Assembly: GCA_001821395.1 (NCBI GenBank) | Contig: MHLM01000007.1 | Location: forward strand, 1-29,245 | DNA from: Candidatus Lloydbacteria bacterium RIFCSPHIGHO2_02_FULL_50_18 | GTDB lineage: Bacteria; Patescibacteriota; Minisyncoccia; Phycocordibacterales; UBA6899 | Reading direction: 5' to 3' | Length of the DNA stretch: 29,245 nucleotides | Part shown: in pieces, positions 1-29,245 of the stretch | How the letters are laid out: each line of letters begins with the position of its first letter | Position numbering within the stretch: position 1 is the first letter of the stretch | Position numbers and translations under genes: made by a program | Notes under the pieces: model-generated | The model's database searches: none | Told to the model about the DNA's origin: nothing | Seen by the model: only the letters and a program-made list of their open reading frames with translations

Positions 1-72
1 TGGGAAACTCCTTGCAAGGTATTCGGAGCATGTTGCGTTTCAAGATAGAATTTAAGAATCCCCATTCGCTCC

Positions 73-6000: not shown

Positions 6001-7649
6001 ACTTCGCAAAGCAGGTAGTTGCCCGGAATAACATCGCTGAACACATATGAACCATCGGCGCTTGTTGTCGTATTCAACGTAAGCCCGTTTCCTGCCACTT
6101 CAGTAAGGGTGATTTCCCAACCTCCTATGCCCACTTCAGCACTATCAACAACGCCATTTGCATTTTCATCGTTAATCTTTTTTCCAGAGACATTGGCAGG
6201 ATCACGCCGACACTCTGTCGTTGCGATACTCTGATAGATAGCAGTGAGATCGGCGCCAGTCGGAGCAAAATAATAATTCGACGGCTGTGATGCGATCTGC
6301 TTCATCAGCGTCGGATTCACGTGGGCGCCCAGCCCGATGGTATAAATGACCGTTCCCAGCGATTTCGCTATCGACGATTGTGTGACCGCAGCAGCACTCG
6401 CAGCCGCAGTAGACACACCCTCTACCTCTGGGACACCGTCCGAGAGCAATATCATCACATGCTTTGTACCGATACGCCCGTTTGCCGTCATCTCTTCCGT
6501 TGCCTTGTTGATCGCTTCGCTAATGTTTGTACCACCAGCCGCGGCAACAGAAGCGAAGCTGGACTTTACCGCAAAAAGATCAGAAGAAAGTGCCGAATTG
6601 AGCGTCGTAGCCGCACTATAGGTCACTACTCCTGCCTTATCAGTTAGTGGTGAAAGACCATCAATGAAAGTTGCTGCGCCGCTCTTTGCCTGGGTCAAAG
6701 GCTGCTCGGGATCTATCCCGTCAAATTTCATGCTCCCTGAACGGTCAATGATCAGCATGACATCAATCGGAGCGAGACATGCCTGTGCGAGTGTAACAGT
6801 GACAATGCGTGTTTTTGTATCAGCGGCAATATTTTGAGAATCAGTTGCGTTGTAGGTGATAGCGTATGTACCCAGTGTGTTCACGTCGACGACGCCGGTC
6901 GCAACGACCTTGTTGTTTATTTGCCCATCTTCAGCATCAAACGCTGTTGCCCCTTGATCGATGTAGATGTTGCCAAGGATGACCTCCACAGGATTATCAC
7001 CGACAATAGTGATCACCGGTTGCTGGTTTCCTGTTGGAGGAGGAGTCGTGCACCCCTCTCCATCAAGAGCAACATGTAGCCCATAAAGCAATCCAGCGGG
7101 ATTCAACTGTGGTGAACTTCCTACTTGTGCCCAATTTTTTACAGTGAAAGAAAGGGTGTTCGCTCCAACATGCAGACCAGAAAGTACATTGTAAGTATCT
7201 TTTTCCCCATCGAAGTAATTATATTCGGTATTATCTCCACCGATCGGATTCCCATTAAGTGCAACAGTATATGAATTATCAGCAGCAATCACGAGCGAAC
7301 CATTAAGTGGGACCGAGGGTAGATCGAATGATCTTGTAAAAGTCACTGTTTCATCGACCGAAGGATCAAGCACGAGATGCGAACTCCATATCCATGTTGC
7401 CCCGGGAATTAACGCTGTCCACCTTACGTTACCATTATACGTCGGCGTAGCATTCACTCCTCCCATGATGGTTGTGTGAATATCAGAAACGATATCAACA
7501 TCACAAACAACGGGCTGATCACTCAGAACGGTCGCATACGCAACCAGAGGTGCACCACCACCTTGCAGCAGCAAAGAAAATGCCATCAGCATTGCGACTG
7601 ATCGCTGTTTTAAAATTTGTTTTTTCGATGAGGTAAATATGGTCTGCAT
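3021..7649 (-). CDS. giant secreted/cell-surface multidomain protein
   Basis: 1542-aa ORF with an N-terminal signal peptide (KKQILKQR then a hydrophobic stretch). VWA domain with an MIDAS-like DRSGSM motif (about nt 6212-6782). SdrD/CnaB-like fold (GGWEITL...DGSYVF). Six tandem repeats, each a Cys/Asp-rich motif (C.DG.DND.DG..DF..D.GC) followed by an Ig-like PVIT..G.NP...GxxYxDxGAxAxDxxDGxI domain. Peptidoglycan-binding-like segment (LQTFLRNYEGF...AVRAFQDRYA). C-terminal hydrophobic helix followed by KRRN. Confidence 0.8.
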   Translation of the reverse strand: MQTIFTSSKKQILKQRSVAMLMAFSLLLQGGGAPLVAYATVLSDQPVVCDVDIVSDIHTTIMGGVNATPTYNGNVRWTALIPGATWIWSSHLVLDPSVDETVTFTRSFDLPSVPLNGSLVIAADNSYTVALNGNPIGGDNTEYNYFDGEKDTYNVLSGLHVGANTLSFTVKNWAQVGSSPQLNPAGLLYGLHVALDGEGCTTPPPTGNQQPVITIVGDNPVEVILGNIYIDQGATAFDAEDGQINNKVVATGVVDVNTLGTYAITYNATDSQNIAADTKTRIVTVTLAQACLAPIDVMLIIDRSGSMKFDGIDPEQPLTQAKSGAATFIDGLSPLTDKAGVVTYSAATTLNSALSSDLFAVKSSFASVAAAGGTNISEAINKATEEMTANGRIGTKHVMILLSDGVPEVEGVSTAAASAAAVTQSSIAKSLGTVIYTIGLGAHVNPTLMKQIASQPSNYYFAPTGADLTAIYQSIATTECRRDPANVSGKKINDENANGVVDSAEVGIGGWEITLTEVAGNGLTLNTTTSADGSYVFSDVIPGNYLLCEVARSGWTETSPVSSMYNGCYFLNLDPGAVLAGQNFLNTESNKPQCRDGKDNDNDSETDFVGGDAGCEGPEDNDENEQPVITVIGADPAIVTLGDAYADEGAIAVDPEDGDITLSKLVTTGVLDTNVLNNYTITYNATDSLNISADTKTRIVRVVAACADGKDNDHDGKTDFAGGDLGCEGPNDNDENNAPVITVVGANPFSITQGGTFTDIGATAFDEEDGVIPAASILMTDTVDTSIVGSYTLHYNVSDSKGLAAAEKTRIVNVTPPVTECNDGIDNDGDGHVDFSGNIEVVRDAGCDSSEDNDENEQPVITVLGDNPFEIHLGVTFIDPSATAIDPEEGAITLVTTGVVDTNVLGTYTVTYDAADAKGLAADTKIRTVRVVTSCSDGRDNDGDELTDFPLDPGCSSSEDDSENAKPMITLLGDIVMNLVVGASYGEPNATVHDQEDGQIDGKLVIFGTVNTAVAGAYVIEYNATDSQDVAADTQSRTVNVTPAVCTQNCGGEPPAACSDGSDNDGDGFADFPRDPGCDSPQDNDERDTGPTLTLLGADPMSITMDTTFADPGATAHDPEDGDITSSIVVSGLVNASVIGAYTLSYNVADAQGHAATPVTRTVNVVPGGGGCTVNCGGGSVTLAIFNEHLASTGTTTVTVTWDTNIAATSRVTYGLLPVLSLGASPLYGYDLSTATDTIASTTHSVTIEGIPSGVSTYFRPISTTDTEGAIGIELTQGAVLGESTECSYLNAYMRLGANNNPVEVTKLQTFLRNYEGFTTLDVNGFFDTTTDAAVRAFQDRYAVDVLSIWNLRGNTGYVYYTTQKKVNELYCKQEFPLTSLQVSEVAAFRDLINKIHREGSTTTSVLPLVGMNTNDGASNGVSVNNGNEGVFAAIDVNEKEKPEPKLVNRGRLALSDLLATMPHVGGELSGTQTDPSVTKEEGIVAGASTKRGLAAVVGSVSDKLHLSDSSVYFLIVLVILTLLLTRLYLKRRNTIDEVDVK
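4200..5900 (-). repeat. intragenic tandem coding repeats (about 290 bp x6) inside the giant protein gene
   Basis: Repeated protein modules (MopE-like motif plus Ig-like domain). The repeats also show up as families of similar spurious plus-strand ORFs in this interval. Confidence 0.6.
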
Positions 7650-12571: not shown

Positions 12572-12614
12572 AAACAAAGTATATCAAGAAATAATTGCAC
12601 AACAAACCCTACGT

Positions 12615-12638
12615 GGTGCCCCTGGCCGGAATCGAACG
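12615..12638 (-). pseudogene. tRNA 3'-terminal fragment (T-loop plus acceptor 3' strand plus CCA)
   Basis: Reverse complement reads GTTCGATTCCGGCCAGGGGCACCA. It is similar to, but not identical with, the 3' end of the adjacent tRNA-Arg, and no matching 5' part lies within 80 nt. Confidence 0.45.
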
Positions 12639-12659
12639 CACTATTTTTCCTGCAACAAC

Positions 12660-12734
12660 TGGTGCCCCCAGCGGGAATCGAACCTACATCTACTCCTTAG
12701 GACGGAGCTGTTCTATCCATTGAACTATGGGGGC
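12660..12734 (-). tRNA. tRNA-Arg (CCT)
   Basis: 75-nt cloverleaf: GCCCCCA TA GTTC AATGGATA GAAC A GCTCC GTCCTAA GGAGT AGAT GTAGG TTCGATT CCCGC TGGGGGC A CCA. The anticodon is CCT, CCA is encoded, and the T-stem has one A-C mismatch. Confidence 0.75.
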
Positions 12735-12894
12735 ACAAGTTGTTGCAGGAAATAAAATTAATACAAGAATCAAACTGACATCTCCGCCCTACTGGCGCTG
12801 TACACCTTTTGGCTTTTTGTTTCACTTCGTTCACAAAACGACTCAAAAGGTCTTGCGGTGTGGCCCCATCGGAATGGGTTCCCAAAGCCACACC

Positions 12895-12945
12895 TCACCT
12901 TAGGACGGAGCTGTTCTATCCATTGAACTACAGAGGCGACGAGCG
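12895..12945 (-). pseudogene. tRNA 5'-half fragment (acceptor 5' strand through anticodon loop), paralogous to tRNA-Arg(CCT)
   Basis: 33 nt (D-arm to anticodon loop) are identical to tRNA-Arg(CCT). The acceptor strand is GCCTCTG rather than GCCCCCA. The sequence diverges after the anticodon loop and there is no T-arm. Confidence 0.45.
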
Positions 12946-12962
12946 TGATTTCCCTCAAGAAT

Positions 12963-12990
12963 ATAAAAGTCCACAATTGTGGACTTTTAT
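12963..12990. terminator. palindromic bidirectional terminator
   Basis: aaaagtccaca at tgtggactttt is a perfect 11-bp stem flanked by an A-run and a T-run. It lies downstream of the glutaredoxin-like gene on the minus strand. Confidence 0.55.
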
Positions 12991-13019
12991 ATAGTATGTT
13001 TTCCTACTCTCTTTCGCAA

Positions 13020-14010: not shown

Positions 14011-14283
14011 TGTTAGAATCAGCGATATCCCTGAAGTAGAAACGACGACGAGTGCGCTAAGGCACAAAAAATCTCATTCTATGCGCGTAGGCAAAGCCTC
14101 CCGCACGTCGGTCCTCGAATCAGAGCCGAATGAAGCGGAACGATTTCCCTCAAATTACACGAGGTGCGGAATCAATGCGGGTAAGCAAAGCTTTCCTCGC
14201 ACGGCAAGCTTCGGAAATGGAAATCGTTGCAAATCACAAAAAAACAATAAGAACGAGATATCTCGTTCTTATTGTTTTTTTGT
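14011..14283 (+). ncRNA. candidate structured ncRNA (unknown family) with duplicated hairpin modules
   Basis: An extended -10 TGTTAGAAT (14011-14019) leads to about 250 nt of non-coding sequence. Two related modules (about 14084-14150 and 14174-14230) differ by a compensatory change in one stem-loop (aggc-aaa-gcct versus aagc-aaa-gctt). The region ends at a strong terminator. Confidence 0.3.
14236..14283. terminator. strong bidirectional terminator (17-bp perfect palindrome)
   Basis: A7, then aacaataagaacgagat|atctcgttcttattgtt (14243-14276, no loop, centre gatatc), then T7. It sits between the candidate ncRNA (+) and tRNA-Gly (-). Confidence 0.65.
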
Positions 14284-14312
14284 GATTTGCGGACTTCCGC
14301 TTCACTCAACTC

Positions 14313-14392: not shown

Positions 14393-14794
14393 TCAATTCG
14401 ACAGACCGACCGCACTCAGAACTTTTTGTGTGACCCCTGGTGTTTCGTCAGGCACTGTGACCGTATGAACCTTCTCAGCTGTTGGGTCAGCAACGATAAT
14501 AACATTTTCCCCCTCTTTCGCAACCATGAATCTGTCCCGGATCTCCCCTTCGATGCCCCGCTCTGTGGAAAGATCAAGAATATCCAGAGAAAGCTCTTTT
14601 TCTCTAGCCTCTAGCTCTGTTAAACGTTGTGTCACAACATCAGTTTTATCCGTTGCGTCCCGGCTCTTCTCATACATCCCCCAGGCACCATTGGCAACCA
14701 TAACAAAAACAACGGCAAGAACGATGATGGTCGGTTTTGCGTACATTGCCCTTCTTACACGATTACGCTCTTTAAAATCTAGCATGCGAGACAT
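14393..14794 (-). CDS. septum formation initiator family protein (FtsB/DivIC-like)
   Basis: Short cytoplasmic N-terminus, one TM helix, a coiled coil (LTELEAREKELSLDILDL), then IEGEIRDRFMVAKEGENVIIV, which matches the DivIC/FtsB C-terminal motif. TATACT then 6 nt then ATG suggests a leaderless transcript. Confidence 0.55.
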   Translation of the reverse strand: MSRMLDFKERNRVRRAMYAKPTIIVLAVVFVMVANGAWGMYEKSRDATDKTDVVTQRLTELEAREKELSLDILDLSTERGIEGEIRDRFMVAKEGENVIIVADPTAEKVHTVTVPDETPGVTQKVLSAVGLSN

Positions 14795-15088
14795 GACTAT
14801 AGTATACCCCGTAGTGAGCCCTCACCGATAATCGAGGGTTGTGTATTTCTCGCCTAGCCAGTAAAATATCGATCGCATACAAGCTCTGGCGCATTAGGTC
14901 TACTACGAGGTATACTATTGAACAATCACCAAAAACATATGTCACTATTTCTCCGAGAAAAAAAGCACAAAAAATGGTTCAATCTTGTCTGGACCATTGT
15001 GGGTATCATGGTCATAAGTAGTATGGTACTCCTCTATCTCCCCGCCTTCCTCTAATAATACCATCTCCAAGAAACCTCTGAACACCAA

Positions 15089-15185
15089 GTCCGGCAAATT
15101 TCGGCTCTGTCATCAGGAAAATATGAAGTCCTATCTCGATAGGTCTTCATATTTTCCTGATGCCCCGCTCGAAATTTTCTCGGAC
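15089..15185. repeat. 97-nt imperfect palindrome with a 52-nt near-perfect core
   Basis: catcaggaaaatatgaag t cctatc tc gatagg t cttcatattttcctgatg (15111-15162, 24 bp paired) is extended by gtccg...cggac arms. It lies in a 540-bp non-coding interval. Confidence 0.55.
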
Positions 15186-15252
15186 TTATGTCCAGACCTT
15201 TCTTGTCGATGGTATAAACTTGATATTCTCGATGCAGTGCGAGACGGCAAGT

Positions 15253-15298
15253 AAAATACCCACAAATTGTACATAAATGTACTACTTGTGGGTATTTT
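15253..15298. terminator. lepA terminator (nested hairpin)
   Basis: Outer stem aaaatacccacaa(15253-15265)/ttgtgggtatttt(15286-15298). Inner stem gtacat aa atgtac. It is U-rich on both strands. Confidence 0.6.
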
Positions 15299-15334: not shown

Positions 15335-17248
15335 TTACTCGTCGGAGCGGATCATCTTGATGAACACATCCGCCGGAATGTTCACATTCCCCATCTCCTG
15401 CATCTTCTTCTTCCCCTTCTTTTGTTTCTCGCGCAATTTCATCTTACGCGTAATGTCGCCACCATAGAGATATCCCGTCACATCTTTTTTGAGTGCAGAA
15501 AGTCGCTCGGACGAAATGATACGACCCATCGCCTTCGCCTGCATCTTGACCACGATCATCTGGCGAGGCATCGACTTGGCCAATTTTTTTACCGCAGCCT
15601 CCGCCTCCTCTTGTGCACGTCTTCGCGAGACAACACGAGAGAATGCCGTCACGGCTTCATCGTTCACGAGAATATCAAGCCGTGTTACATCAGCATCACG
15701 GAAGCCGCCTATCTCGTATGAGAGACTTGCAAAACCGGATGAAATAGACTTGAGCTTATCAAAAAAGCTCCGCATAAGCTCGCGCAAAGGCATCTTAAAT
15801 TCAACCTTAAAACGATTCTCTCCAAAGATCTCCGTGTTCCCCGTCTCTGCCTCATGCTCGAACAAGAGCTGTGTCACCGCACCGAGATAGTCCGGTGGTA
15901 AAATGATCTCACCATCTATCCAGGGTTCGCGCACCGAAACGATCTCGCCATCCTCAGGAAAAAGTGACGGTGAATAGATAATATCGGTTTTTTTGGTACT
16001 TTTCCGAGTGACCTCGTAGGTGATTGTCGGGGTTGTTACCACGAGCTCAAGGTCAAATTCTCGACGTAAGCGCTCCGTAATGATCTCGAGATGGAGCATC
16101 CCAAGAAAGCCACAACGAAATCCGCGACCCAGATTGCCTGATGCCTCCTCTTCAAAGGTCAGCGACGAATCCGAGAGTTGAAGACGCTGTAGCGCAAGGC
16201 GCAACGTCGGAAGATCATCCTGGCTCTCCGGGTACACGGACGCCCACACAACCGGACGGGGCTTTCCGTAGCCAGGAAGTGCAGGGAGCGGATTACGATA
16301 AAAGGTGACCGTATCTCCGACTGCGGCAATACCCGGACGTTTAATTCCGGTCACAATGTAGCCGATCTCTCCGTGAGAAAGGTCGGGCTTCGCAACCTCA
16401 CCAGGGGCAAAGTATCCTGTTTCGAGCGCAAAAAATTTCTCCTTTGCCGCTGAAAAAGTAAGCTCTGAACCTTTCGTGATCGTACCGTCGAGAACGCGCA
16501 CGTAAAGAATAACTCCCCGATGATTGGAATATGAAAAATCAAAGATAAGCGCACGCGCACTCTTCGTGCCGGGAAATTCTTCTTCGGGTGGCGGGATACG
16601 GAGAATGATCGCCTCAAGCAGCGCGTCGACCCCCTCCCCCGTTCTTCCGGAAACGAGCAGTACGCTCTCAGGCGGAACGGAAAGTAGAGCAACGACCTCA
16701 TCGCGCACTTCGTCGACGCGAGCAAGTGGTGAGTCTATTTTTGAGAGGACCGGGATGATGGTGAGCCCATGCTCACGCGCCATGGCGAGCGTAGTGAGCG
16801 TTTGTGCCTGTACCCCCTGCGTCGCATCCACGAGGAGAAGACATCCCTCGACCGCCTTGAGCGCTCGCGAAACCTCATACGAAAAATCGATATGCCCCGG
16901 TGTGTCGATGAGGTTCAGGAGGTAGTGTTCCCCCTTATATTCGTGGTACATACGCACGGGCTGCATCTTGATGGTGATACCGCGCTCGCGCTCAAGTTCC
17001 ATGGAATCAAGAACTTGTTCATGCATTTTTCGCTTTTCGATCGTATGCGTCGTCTCCAGCATGCGATCAGCAAGCGTTGACTTCCCGTGGTCGATATGGG
17101 CTATGATACTAAAGTTTCTGATCAGATTTTTGGACATGGGGCTTGTCATCAGATGACGAACTTTTTTGTTGCGGGGTCCCTGCGACTCGGTCACCATATA
17201 TGAATATGTCTCCCTCATCGCTTTCCCCGCGCCGCAAATTTCATTCAT
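15335..17248 (-). CDS. lepA: translation elongation factor 4 (LepA)
   Basis: NFSIIAHIDHGKSTLADR G1 motif, DTPGHIDF, NKID, EF-G-like domains and a LepA C-terminal domain. The N-terminal extension is uncertain. The ATG at 17248 has TGCTAGTAT 15 nt upstream. Alternative ATGs lie at 17218, 17197 and 17137. Confidence 0.85.
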   Translation of the reverse strand: MNEICGAGKAMRETYSYMVTESQGPRNKKVRHLMTSPMSKNLIRNFSIIAHIDHGKSTLADRMLETTHTIEKRKMHEQVLDSMELERERGITIKMQPVRMYHEYKGEHYLLNLIDTPGHIDFSYEVSRALKAVEGCLLLVDATQGVQAQTLTTLAMAREHGLTIIPVLSKIDSPLARVDEVRDEVVALLSVPPESVLLVSGRTGEGVDALLEAIILRIPPPEEEFPGTKSARALIFDFSYSNHRGVILYVRVLDGTITKGSELTFSAAKEKFFALETGYFAPGEVAKPDLSHGEIGYIVTGIKRPGIAAVGDTVTFYRNPLPALPGYGKPRPVVWASVYPESQDDLPTLRLALQRLQLSDSSLTFEEEASGNLGRGFRCGFLGMLHLEIITERLRREFDLELVVTTPTITYEVTRKSTKKTDIIYSPSLFPEDGEIVSVREPWIDGEIILPPDYLGAVTQLLFEHEAETGNTEIFGENRFKVEFKMPLRELMRSFFDKLKSISSGFASLSYEIGGFRDADVTRLDILVNDEAVTAFSRVVSRRRAQEEAEAAVKKLAKSMPRQMIVVKMQAKAMGRIISSERLSALKKDVTGYLYGGDITRKMKLREKQKKGKKKMQEMGNVNIPADVFIKMIRSDE

Positions 17249-26562: not shown

Positions 26563-26602
26563 AATTACCTTATAATACGCCATGGCGTATTATAAGGTAA
26601 TT
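26563..26602. repeat. 40-bp perfect palindrome (20-bp arms, no spacer)
   Basis: aattaccttataatacgcca|tggcgtattataaggtaatt. Each arm contains a TATAAT box. It lies in a 465-bp intergenic region. Confidence 0.6.
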
Positions 26603-28549: not shown

Positions 28550-28993
28550 ATGTCCTATCATGAAGAACTGTCACCGAGTGAGAGCGCCAAAAAACTCCCC
28601 GAAGGAAGTAAGGCGGAAAAGATCAGAAATGGGGTTGAGGTGAGACTTGAAGAAATTACTTCCGCCATCGCAGAAGGACACCCAAGTCTTACTCGTCTTG
28701 AACTCACAGAGGTAGGACAAAACATTATTGCACTTTTTGACGAACTCTTAGACGAACTACCGGACGATTTTGCGAACGAGCACCCCACCATTGAACACTC
28801 GGCCCCAGCCGATGAGCTTGAAAAAGGACCGGTTGCTATCGGAGATAACCGCTCAAAACGTTTTTGGGAAATCGATAGCGAGATAGAGGCACTCCTCAAA
28901 AAATTCGATGCGCTCTACGAAGCGCAGGGGCAGGAGCCCGAGATACAGACCGATGGCATTGTCGTGCAACAGGACAAACCCACGATGCAATAA
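28550..28993 (+). CDS. hypothetical acidic protein
   Basis: 147 aa, Glu/Asp-rich, with no recognised family. It is bracketed by the inverted hairpin pair. Confidence 0.45.
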   Translation: MSYHEELSPSESAKKLPEGSKAEKIRNGVEVRLEEITSAIAEGHPSLTRLELTEVGQNIIALFDELLDELPDDFANEHPTIEHSAPADELEKGPVAIGDNRSKRFWEIDSEIEALLKKFDALYEAQGQEPEIQTDGIVVQQDKPTMQ

Positions 28994-29057
28994 AACCCAC
29001 AAAAATGGGGATTCTCGTTTCCGAATGGTGCTTATCCCCGTTTTCTCAGCGCGACCA

Positions 29058-29086
29058 AATAATCCAAGGTTCCACCTTGGATTATT
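29058..29086. terminator. hairpin aataatccaagg-ttcca-ccttggattatt (terminator; downstream member of hairpin pair)
   Basis: 12-bp perfect stem followed by ttag. It lies 65 nt after the stop of the 28550-28993 gene. Confidence 0.55.
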
Positions 29087-29245
29087 TTAGTAATGAGACC
29101 TTATCCATATTTCTCACAAGACCACACATTCAGATAAAATGGAGGGGTCACGATTCATTCTAGCTTGAACTGCAACACCTCCCGAACACCACGCACGGAG
29201 TAGACCAATGGAGGATTCTGCGCGGTCGATGGTTCAATCTCCACA

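Follow-up and report, generated by a model that had tools for sequence, protein, structure and literature searches.

Bidirectional intrinsic terminators, stem-loops flanked by complementary A- and T-tracts between convergent genes, are kept by compensatory change (PMC5381666). Hairpins also occur at gene ends in the form of those bacterial MITEs that fold over their whole length: Correia/nemis of Neisseria, the enterobacterial ERIC, YPAL of Yersinia and the terminator-like SPRITE of pneumococci are about 130–170 bp long, lie in intergenic or 3'UTR positions and form one long hairpin. Such elements are co-transcribed with their neighbours, have a short A/T-rich duplication and −10-like boxes at their ends and are defined as multi-copy repeat families whose termini are conserved and whose parent IS is often known; the copy number of a MITE can be one per genome (PMC10969869). 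Whole-length-hairpin MITEs and SPRITE are reported to influence the 3' ends of mRNAs, by termination or by processing with RNase III or RNase E (PMC10969869; PMC3049150). Finally, template switching converts imperfect repeats into more perfect ones, as at the quasipalindrome (QP) mutational hotspots of E. coli (PMC7202029).

The palindrome considered here lies in a 29,245-nt stretch of DNA (the window, meaning the whole stretch that was analysed) from Candidatus Lloydbacteria bacterium RIFCSPHIGHO2_02_FULL_50_18, an uncultured organism known only from environmental metagenome assemblies. Like the bidirectional terminators it is placed between convergent genes, with complementary A- and T-tracts flanking a stem-loop, but its pairing runs about 65 nt further on each side, to 158 nt, its inner stem is AT-rich (G–C pairs at five of 11 positions), its longest T-run is 4 and a consensus terminator scan did not call its core. 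It has the size, the position and the long hairpin of the MITEs, possibly the A/T-rich duplication and likewise the −10-like boxes, but no second copy, parent IS or family member was found for it in the collections searched, and it is best conserved at its centre rather than at its termini. With the products of quasipalindrome template switching it shares an imperfect inverted repeat around a perfect centre; the documented events, however, change short patches, a few nucleotides long, within repeats of some 20–40 bp and do not create a foldback of 158 bp. Its two main parts are as follows.

15058–15215, no strand assigned: full imperfect palindrome (foldback), two 78-nt arms with TC between them, from repeat finding and folds
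15111–15162, no strand assigned: near-perfect core of 52 nt, with 24 of 25 arm positions paired

An inverted-repeat search of the window delimited the arms at 15058–15135 and 15138–15215; they are 74% complementary without gaps and 78.75% with four gaps. A preliminary description of this DNA had reported an extended palindrome of 97 nt, which is real but falls short of the 158 bp now found. Its 18-bp perfect stem and 52-nt near-perfect core are both borne out: CATCAGGAAAATATGAAG (15111–15128) and CTTCATATTTTCCTGATG (15145–15162) are exact reverse complements within 15111–15162. CATCAGGAAAATATGAAG and its reverse complement are the sole two matches in the window when up to three mismatches are allowed, and two matches of the 18-mer were seen in none of 100 shuffles. 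The core stem goes on through CCTAT/ATAGG to a CTCG loop, as had been proposed for cctatc/gatagg, but the supposed bulges are a symmetric 1×1 T·T internal mismatch. The outer gtccg/cggac pairing was found as well. The ends form terminal inverted repeats, TACCATC...GATGGTA, and the arms pair over their full length, which is trivial for any palindrome.

The predicted folds are very stable. The RNA minimum free energy of the 196-nt palindrome region is −79.5 kcal/mol on the plus strand and −91.7 kcal/mol on the minus strand (z = −12.7 and −12.6, respectively; none of 200 shuffles was equally stable), and the DNA fold of the palindrome gives −47.8 kcal/mol (z = −12.1). The structure is far beyond chance. 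Pairing is uneven along the arms: the core has one mismatch in 25 positions and the outer arms have 17 in about 53 (Fisher p = 0.008). Each outer arm measures about 53 nt and is, without gaps, roughly 68% paired. A core that is better paired than the outer arms fits the expectation if only the centre is maintained.

The lepA–DivIC gap that holds the palindrome is 100% identical across at least eight contigs of the same organism (Logan SRR2090153, SRR2090155, SRR3989344 and SRR3989338; ENA ERZ27254845, a 140-kb contig, and ERZ27254752). Since it is identical in all samples that carry the palindrome, it holds no information on selection. A search for further copies, as the preliminary description had proposed, found none in the window plus about 3 kb more of the same genome (some 3% of a genome of roughly 1 Mb), nor in about 60 kb from relatives, and neither the phage nor the plasmid collections had a blastn match to the 540-bp gap. 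The collections of IMG/VR, GTDB representatives and metagenome contigs were scanned with the exact 18-mer of the core, which was present at 22 IMG/VR, 83 GTDB-representative and at least 118 metagenome loci, always singly and in one orientation. Among these listed loci none has the 18-mer in both orientations and the matches are chance ones only; blastn of the whole palindrome against 232 loci found it only in the same organism. Of the properties that, by the preliminary description, would leave a stable hairpin of unknown significance, uniqueness and lack of conservation were observed, as far as the sequence searched and the relatives compared extend. The palindrome is apparently single-copy and lineage-specific, and belongs to no detectable RNA, protein or repeat family.

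Reading frames cross the palindrome on both strands.

15123–15254, plus strand: ORF across the palindrome, 43 aa, with AGGA 4 nt ahead of its ATG
Minus strand: mirror ORF across the palindrome, 32 aa, with AGGA 4 nt ahead of its ATG

The Shine–Dalgarno-like AGGA on each strand would suit small proteins, either a type I toxin, as had been suggested earlier, or a pair of overlapping mirror ORFs. However, the mirror peptides agree at only 53% of residues while their DNA is about 78% identical, which means that nearly every difference between the arms alters an amino acid, and they are hydrophilic where a toxin of this type would usually be hydrophobic. At E ≤ 1 neither matches Pfam. A profile built from both peptides was run against 5.8 billion proteins and gave no candidate homologue, and so no further copy of the palindrome by way of spuriously called ORFs; the frames themselves were never called on any contig. 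With no coding constraint to be seen, a coding or toxin function is effectively refuted and we give it hardly any credence.

The genes and the gene-end hairpin around the palindrome are the following.

14393–14794, minus strand: DivIC/FtsB-family gene (Pfam DivIC, 1.2e-06, 28.6 bits against a cut-off of 28.9; homologues), divergent from the small ORF
14939–15055, plus strand: 38-aa membrane-peptide gene, MSLFLREKKHKKWFNLVWTIVGIMVISSMVLLYLPAFL, 64–97% identical in L031, L026, L243, L241, L239 and L029
15253–15298, no strand assigned: lepA 3' hairpin with A4/T4 flanks, of the bidirectional-terminator type, 37 nt from the palindrome
15335–17248, minus strand: lepA (Pfam GTP_EFTU and LepA_C), convergent with the small ORF

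The 540-bp gap between lepA and the DivIC gene had been taken as non-coding. This does not hold for the whole of it, because of the conserved 38-aa ORF at 14939–15055 on the plus strand. The peptide begins with a basic N-terminus, after which comes a single hydrophobic segment that probably spans the membrane, and it matches no Pfam family. Its gene adjoins the DivIC gene divergently in six of six relatives, even in L239, where lepA is elsewhere. Gene callers missed or mis-called it on some contigs; it is called in L233, and on one contig an antisense ORF is called instead. We regard the peptide as a candidate small division-associated membrane protein. This conserved peptide, whose gene is always paired with that of DivIC/FtsB, is a more useful by-product of the analysis than the palindrome, which is remarkable for its length but ordinary in kind, and matters little by itself. 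The stop codon of the 38-aa gene (15053–15055) is followed by a second TAA, and the palindrome begins at 15058, 2 nt past the stop. On its other side the palindrome is 119 nt beyond the stop of lepA, which is read from the minus strand.

The divergent promoter region of the DivIC gene and the small ORF contains, at 14799–14918, a 17-nt inverted repeat, ATAGTATACCCCGTAGT / ACTACGAGGTATACTAT, around 86 nt. This segment is common to the window, L031 and L026. It looks like an older insertion of about 100 bp with a GTATAC duplication, because L028 has a single ATAGTATACTAT palindrome.

The relatives used for comparison have DivIC proteins that are 89% (L031), 77% (L026; GCA_043719805.1) and 67% (L028–L030; GCA_002429425.1) identical to that of the window. 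The gene order MurJ, hypothetical, LepA, gap, DivIC is kept, MurJ and LepA being seen in L026 and L028–L030; the L031 contig spans the gap and DivIC only. The palindrome is absent from all of these, and also from three more distant relatives (L241, L239 and L243). Over the promoter region and the small ORF, L031 and L026 align well with the window (76–89% identity), and a short motif beside the lepA hairpin, GATGCAGTGCGAGA, is common to the three. From the stop of the small ORF to GATGCAGTGCGAGA the sequence is unrelated in every genome compared, and in the window the palindrome fills this variable interval almost exactly (15056–15219). The relatives offer no clean empty site, because the whole interval differs between genomes. 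Downstream of the small ORF each relative has, instead of the palindrome, an ordinary hairpin with a T-run.

L028: terminator AAAAACCGCCAT..ATGACGGTTTTT
L031: terminator GCCCTGCG..CGTAGGGCATTTTTTTT
L026: terminator GGCCCG..CGGGCCTATTTTT
L241: terminator AAAAAAACTGCT..AGCAGTTTT
L239: terminator TAGGG..CCCTATTTT

In L031 and L026 the terminator is at the lepA-proximal end of the variable interval and is followed by the shared lepA-side hairpin. Since the terminators of the relatives are in this slot, the palindrome core occupies the position of the plus-strand terminator. The 3' ends of bacterial genes turn over fast, and here there is a different terminator in each relative and a giant foldback in this lineage. 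The interval has also lost coding sequence. Between lepA and the small ORF, L028 (3510–3755) and L241 (9454–9756) have a conserved ORF of 81–100 aa, MYHIVHFHADGGQ.C.PGVR.FDD..., 60% identical between them, which is undetectable in the window, L031 and L026; the interval of the palindrome therefore once held a gene.

The relatives have a further conserved element of about 110–125 nt directly 3' of lepA (L026 3226–3351, L028 3243–3368 and L031 1 to about 120), bracketed by a 15–17-nt inverted repeat, GTAGCAG...CTGCTAC. The window genome lacks this element. Rfam has nothing like it at E ≤ 1, and an alignment fold gave only a weak consensus structure.

Within the core, three elements are arranged as in a terminator.

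15118–15124, no strand assigned: A-tract AAAATAT, the mirror of the T-tract, which would act as the minus-strand T-tract
15125–15148, no strand assigned: inner hairpin GAAG(T)CCTAT-CTCG-ATAGG(T)CTTC, −8.4 kcal/mol, the proposed terminator stem-loop with an 11-bp stem
15149–15155, no strand assigned: T-tract ATATTTT, which on the plus strand adjoins the end of the inner hairpin; the tail of the lepA hairpin is likewise TATTTT

The preliminary description had set a simple terminator aside on the grounds that no U-tract follows. None does follow the full stem, but ATATTTT lies inside the 3' arm, immediately after the 11-bp hairpin. This exclusion was the weakest part of the earlier reading, given that the core is built like the hairpins of lepA and glutaredoxin and sits in the terminator slot of the relatives. 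The lepA hairpin consists of A4, a long stem, a 1×1 mismatch, 5 bp, a tetraloop and TATTTT. In the glutaredoxin hairpin (12961–12992), which has A4/T4 flanks, the inner stem has −8.1 kcal/mol, compared with −8.4 kcal/mol in the palindrome core, so that the A-tract, stem and T-tract build is shared by all three. The hairpin after tRNA-Gly (14229–14290) has A7/T7 flanks. The core is much weaker than the canonical terminators of several genes of the window, in which the stem is G+C-rich and the tail is T5–T6.

Our preferred reading, which we hold tentatively and at somewhat less than even confidence, is that the core is a 3'-end hairpin of the bidirectional-terminator type, serving the small membrane-peptide gene and acting as a back-up for lepA, within a foldback that is otherwise non-essential. 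From the anatomy of the core we infer that on the plus strand the inner hairpin would form just ahead of the U-rich tail and make or stabilize the 3' end of the small-gene mRNA, and that on the minus strand the mirror image of the core could back up the lepA terminator. The outer arms would be a historical extension that is not needed for termination; they may have come with an inserted element or have arisen at the hairpin, which would have nucleated an inverted duplication or a template switch. A transcript that reads through would fold into the complete 75-bp hairpin, a plausible substrate for RNase III.

Besides the build of the core, its better pairing and the plain terminators of the relatives, two further observations favour this reading. 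Firstly, the palindrome starts 2 nt past the stop of a small ORF that is conserved beside DivIC in all six relatives. Secondly, another hairpin of the window, that after tRNA-Gly, is also inside a longer perfect palindrome, of 62 bp. Counting against it are the negative consensus scan, the AT-rich stem with its short T-run and the stronger terminators elsewhere in the window. Complicating factors are that the bidirectional hairpin at 15253–15298 is already 37 nt further on, so that a second terminator is not obviously needed, and that termination does not account for the 106 nt of the outer arms. Moreover, the palindrome is absent from all relatives, so that any function it has can be dispensed with or is of very recent date.

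The origin of the outer arms brings in two further explanations, of which the first concerns the ends of the palindrome.

15056–15058, no strand assigned: TAA left of TACCATC, a possible 3-bp target-site duplication, weak and attributable to chance; also the second stop of the small ORF
15215–15217, no strand assigned: TAA right of GATGGTA, the partner of the possible duplication

A MITE-like non-autonomous foldback of the nemis/Correia, ERIC or SPRITE kind may have inserted at TAA after the small ORF, with terminator or promoter activity as a by-product. Such an insertion overlaps with the terminator explanation, as a possible origin of the foldback. The length of 158 bp, the intergenic 3'-UTR site and the whole-length hairpin are typical of bacterial MITEs (reviewed in PMC10969869), and the palindrome occurs in one species and is absent from relatives with 89, 77 and 67% identical DivIC. 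TAA flanks both ends, TAA|TACCATC...GATGGTA|TAA, but as a target-site duplication, for which the preliminary description had recommended looking, a 3-bp match is weak evidence and its left copy is a stop codon. Outward-facing extended −10-like boxes are present at both ends, TGGTATAAA on the plus strand, read from the sequence, and TGGTATTAT on the minus strand; a promoter scan gave TTCAGA-16-TATTAT with TG for the minus-strand site, the number of such hits being at the level of shuffled sequence. The genome contains at least one IS, which is IS30-like. The palindrome ends are, however, unrelated to its terminal inverted repeat, TTCATTCTAGCTTGAACTGCAACA (the only IS seen, L236 1408–2525), no second copy was found in the sequence or collections searched by exact 18-mer or blastn, and conservation peaks at the centre of the palindrome and not at the termini, where a transposase would bind. 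The suggestion of a MITE, already made in the preliminary description, draws on the absence from relatives and on the weak TAA flanks but has gained no support and no second copy; we consider it possible but doubtful.

The IS30-like element itself encloses the end of the window. Positions from about 28990 to 29245 are within it, and the element encodes a 332-aa transposase with HTH_38 and rve_3 domains and has 24-nt terminal inverted repeats (L236 1408–2525). Another assembly has a different junction, at L235 10602–11677, where an NYN-domain gene is followed by a 103-bp repeat of window 29024–29126 and then by window 1–56, inverted. The differing junction points to a rearrangement or a strain difference at the IS30-like element.

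The second explanation for the arms starts from a small hairpin, such as an older terminator, whose flank was copied in situ by fold-back at the hairpin, leaving a palindrome without function. The arms would since have decayed, and the tip would have been kept perfect by repeated template switches of the quasipalindrome-correcting kind; template switching is known to make quasipalindromes more perfect (PMC7202029). The 21–26% divergence of the arms is close to the 22% non-coding divergence from the closest relative, L031, as would be expected if the duplication post-dates the split. Mismatches in the outer arms are clustered (19 mismatches in nine runs, p = 0.03), a pattern to be expected of patchy copying, and the palindrome replaces the entire variable interval and is not nested in remnants of it. 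Long perfect palindromes are also unusually numerous in the window (62, 40 and 32 bp), with one more of 38 bp at the end of contig L236, compared with the relatives, and their perfection extends further than any function would require. Against these points, spontaneous palindromes of such a size are rare in bacteria, the mechanism is carried over by analogy from work on E. coli, and neither arm is significantly similar to the L031 or L026 interval in local alignments against shuffles. The arms being unlike the interval of the relatives, no ancestral template is identifiable and the evidence does not choose between insertion and in-situ origin. An in-situ origin is compatible with a terminator function of the core; as a complete account of the palindrome we think it unlikely.

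A homology of the arms to the L031 and L026 interval had appeared suggestive by eye and was dropped when the alignments proved not significant against shuffles.

The other perfect palindromes are without spacers. That of 62 bp (14229–14290) lies 22 nt 3' of tRNA-Gly and has the A7/T7 terminator-like core within a longer dyad. Positions 1197–1248 of L243 are homologous to it (79% over 120 nt), with symmetric changes at the centre on both arms, GAGAT|ATCTC versus GAGCT|AGCTC, which keep the palindrome; L031, L029 and L026 have unrelated, ordinary terminators after tRNA-Gly. A 40-bp palindrome at 26563–26602 (AATTACCTTATAATACGCCATGGCG...) has TATAAT boxes on both strands and T5 after it on the minus strand. 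The 32-bp palindrome, at 12961–12992, is 28 nt past the glutaredoxin stop, and that of 38 bp occupies L236 3600–3637, the extreme end of a contig from the same organism. The density of perfect palindromes is higher here than in the loci of the relatives.

These observations would fit an organism that grows its 3'-end hairpins into long palindromes genome-wide, with the 158-bp foldback as the extreme case; alternatively, the foldback would be the founding copy of a new mobile family with its own terminator and outward promoters. Growth of this kind might proceed by unchecked hairpin-templated copying, possibly in consequence of missing palindrome-cleaving or exonuclease functions. We regard this wider proposal as quite improbable. 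If the richness in palindromes proved to be general in this genome, it could help to show how long palindromes are generated and tolerated in small genomes that are poor in repair functions.

A long hairpin of a similar size was noted in L026 at 6331–6491. It is about 160 nt long (−91.3 kcal/mol, z = −8.5), its outer stem is perfect over 18 bp, and its core is terminator-like with A5/T5. A VTT-domain gene stops 47 nt before it, and a serine recombinase gene lies downstream. It is one of the hairpins on which the proposal of genome-wide palindrome growth draws. As a family member it was rejected, because only the CTCG tip and the TC spacer are common to the two; it is an analogue without homology.

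The very stable fold on both strands and the position of the palindrome in the 3' region of a conserved small gene would also suit a structured regulatory RNA, whether an sRNA in the form of a long hairpin, a 3'UTR element processed by RNase III or an antisense RNA that regulates the small ORF or lepA. Hairpin MITEs such as Correia are RNase III substrates (PMC10969869), and the promoter-like site on the minus strand reads into the small-ORF antisense. This promoter-like hit is at chance level, however, and Rfam has no family for the palindrome, which leaves the sRNA proposed in the preliminary description without a match: in Rfam 15 at the gathering threshold the whole window gave only RNase P and three tRNAs, and at E ≤ 10 the gap gave only chance hairpins of miRNA type, at 15–25 bits against gathering scores of 53–93. 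Since the palindrome is not conserved in relatives there is no covariation to draw on, and a hand count of G·U-compatible mismatches (three on the plus strand, two on the minus strand) indicates no strand preference as RNA. A regulatory RNA is in our judgement very unlikely.

The last explanation treats the palindrome as a DNA dyad bound by protein, either an operator or an att- or attC-like site on which a serine or tyrosine recombinase would act. The 52-bp near-perfect dyad around a central, non-palindromic TC resembles in size and layout the att sites of large serine recombinases, and there are duplications of tRNA fragments nearby and, in the relative L026, a serine recombinase nearby. The preliminary description had listed attachment sites and operators among its suggestions. 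The attC R''/R' motifs (RYYYAAC...GTTRRRY) are absent from the palindrome ends, the ORFs of the window include no integrase or recombinase and no regulator gene is adjacent, and a search for a second half-site or a partner site found neither. Relatives normally share functional operators and att sites, whereas the palindrome is not conserved. We judge a protein-binding site to be a very improbable explanation. The dif, origin and terminus readings were rejected, the first description's origin-like site among them, as the cumulative GC skew is monotonic over the window and shows no switch.

The tRNA-Arg(CCT) gene at 12660–12734 on the minus strand has complementary arms of 25 nt, 12646–12670 and 12728–12752 (96%), which extend its acceptor stem. 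Copies of parts of a tRNA-Arg flank it: a 40-nt 5' half at 12898–12937 (93%) and a 24-nt 3' end at 12614–12637 (88%). The acceptor strands of these flanking copies, GCCTCTG and CAGGGGC, are complementary to each other and not to the intact tRNA-Arg. The flanking pieces look like what is left of a second tRNA-Arg gene, divided on either side of the intact one.
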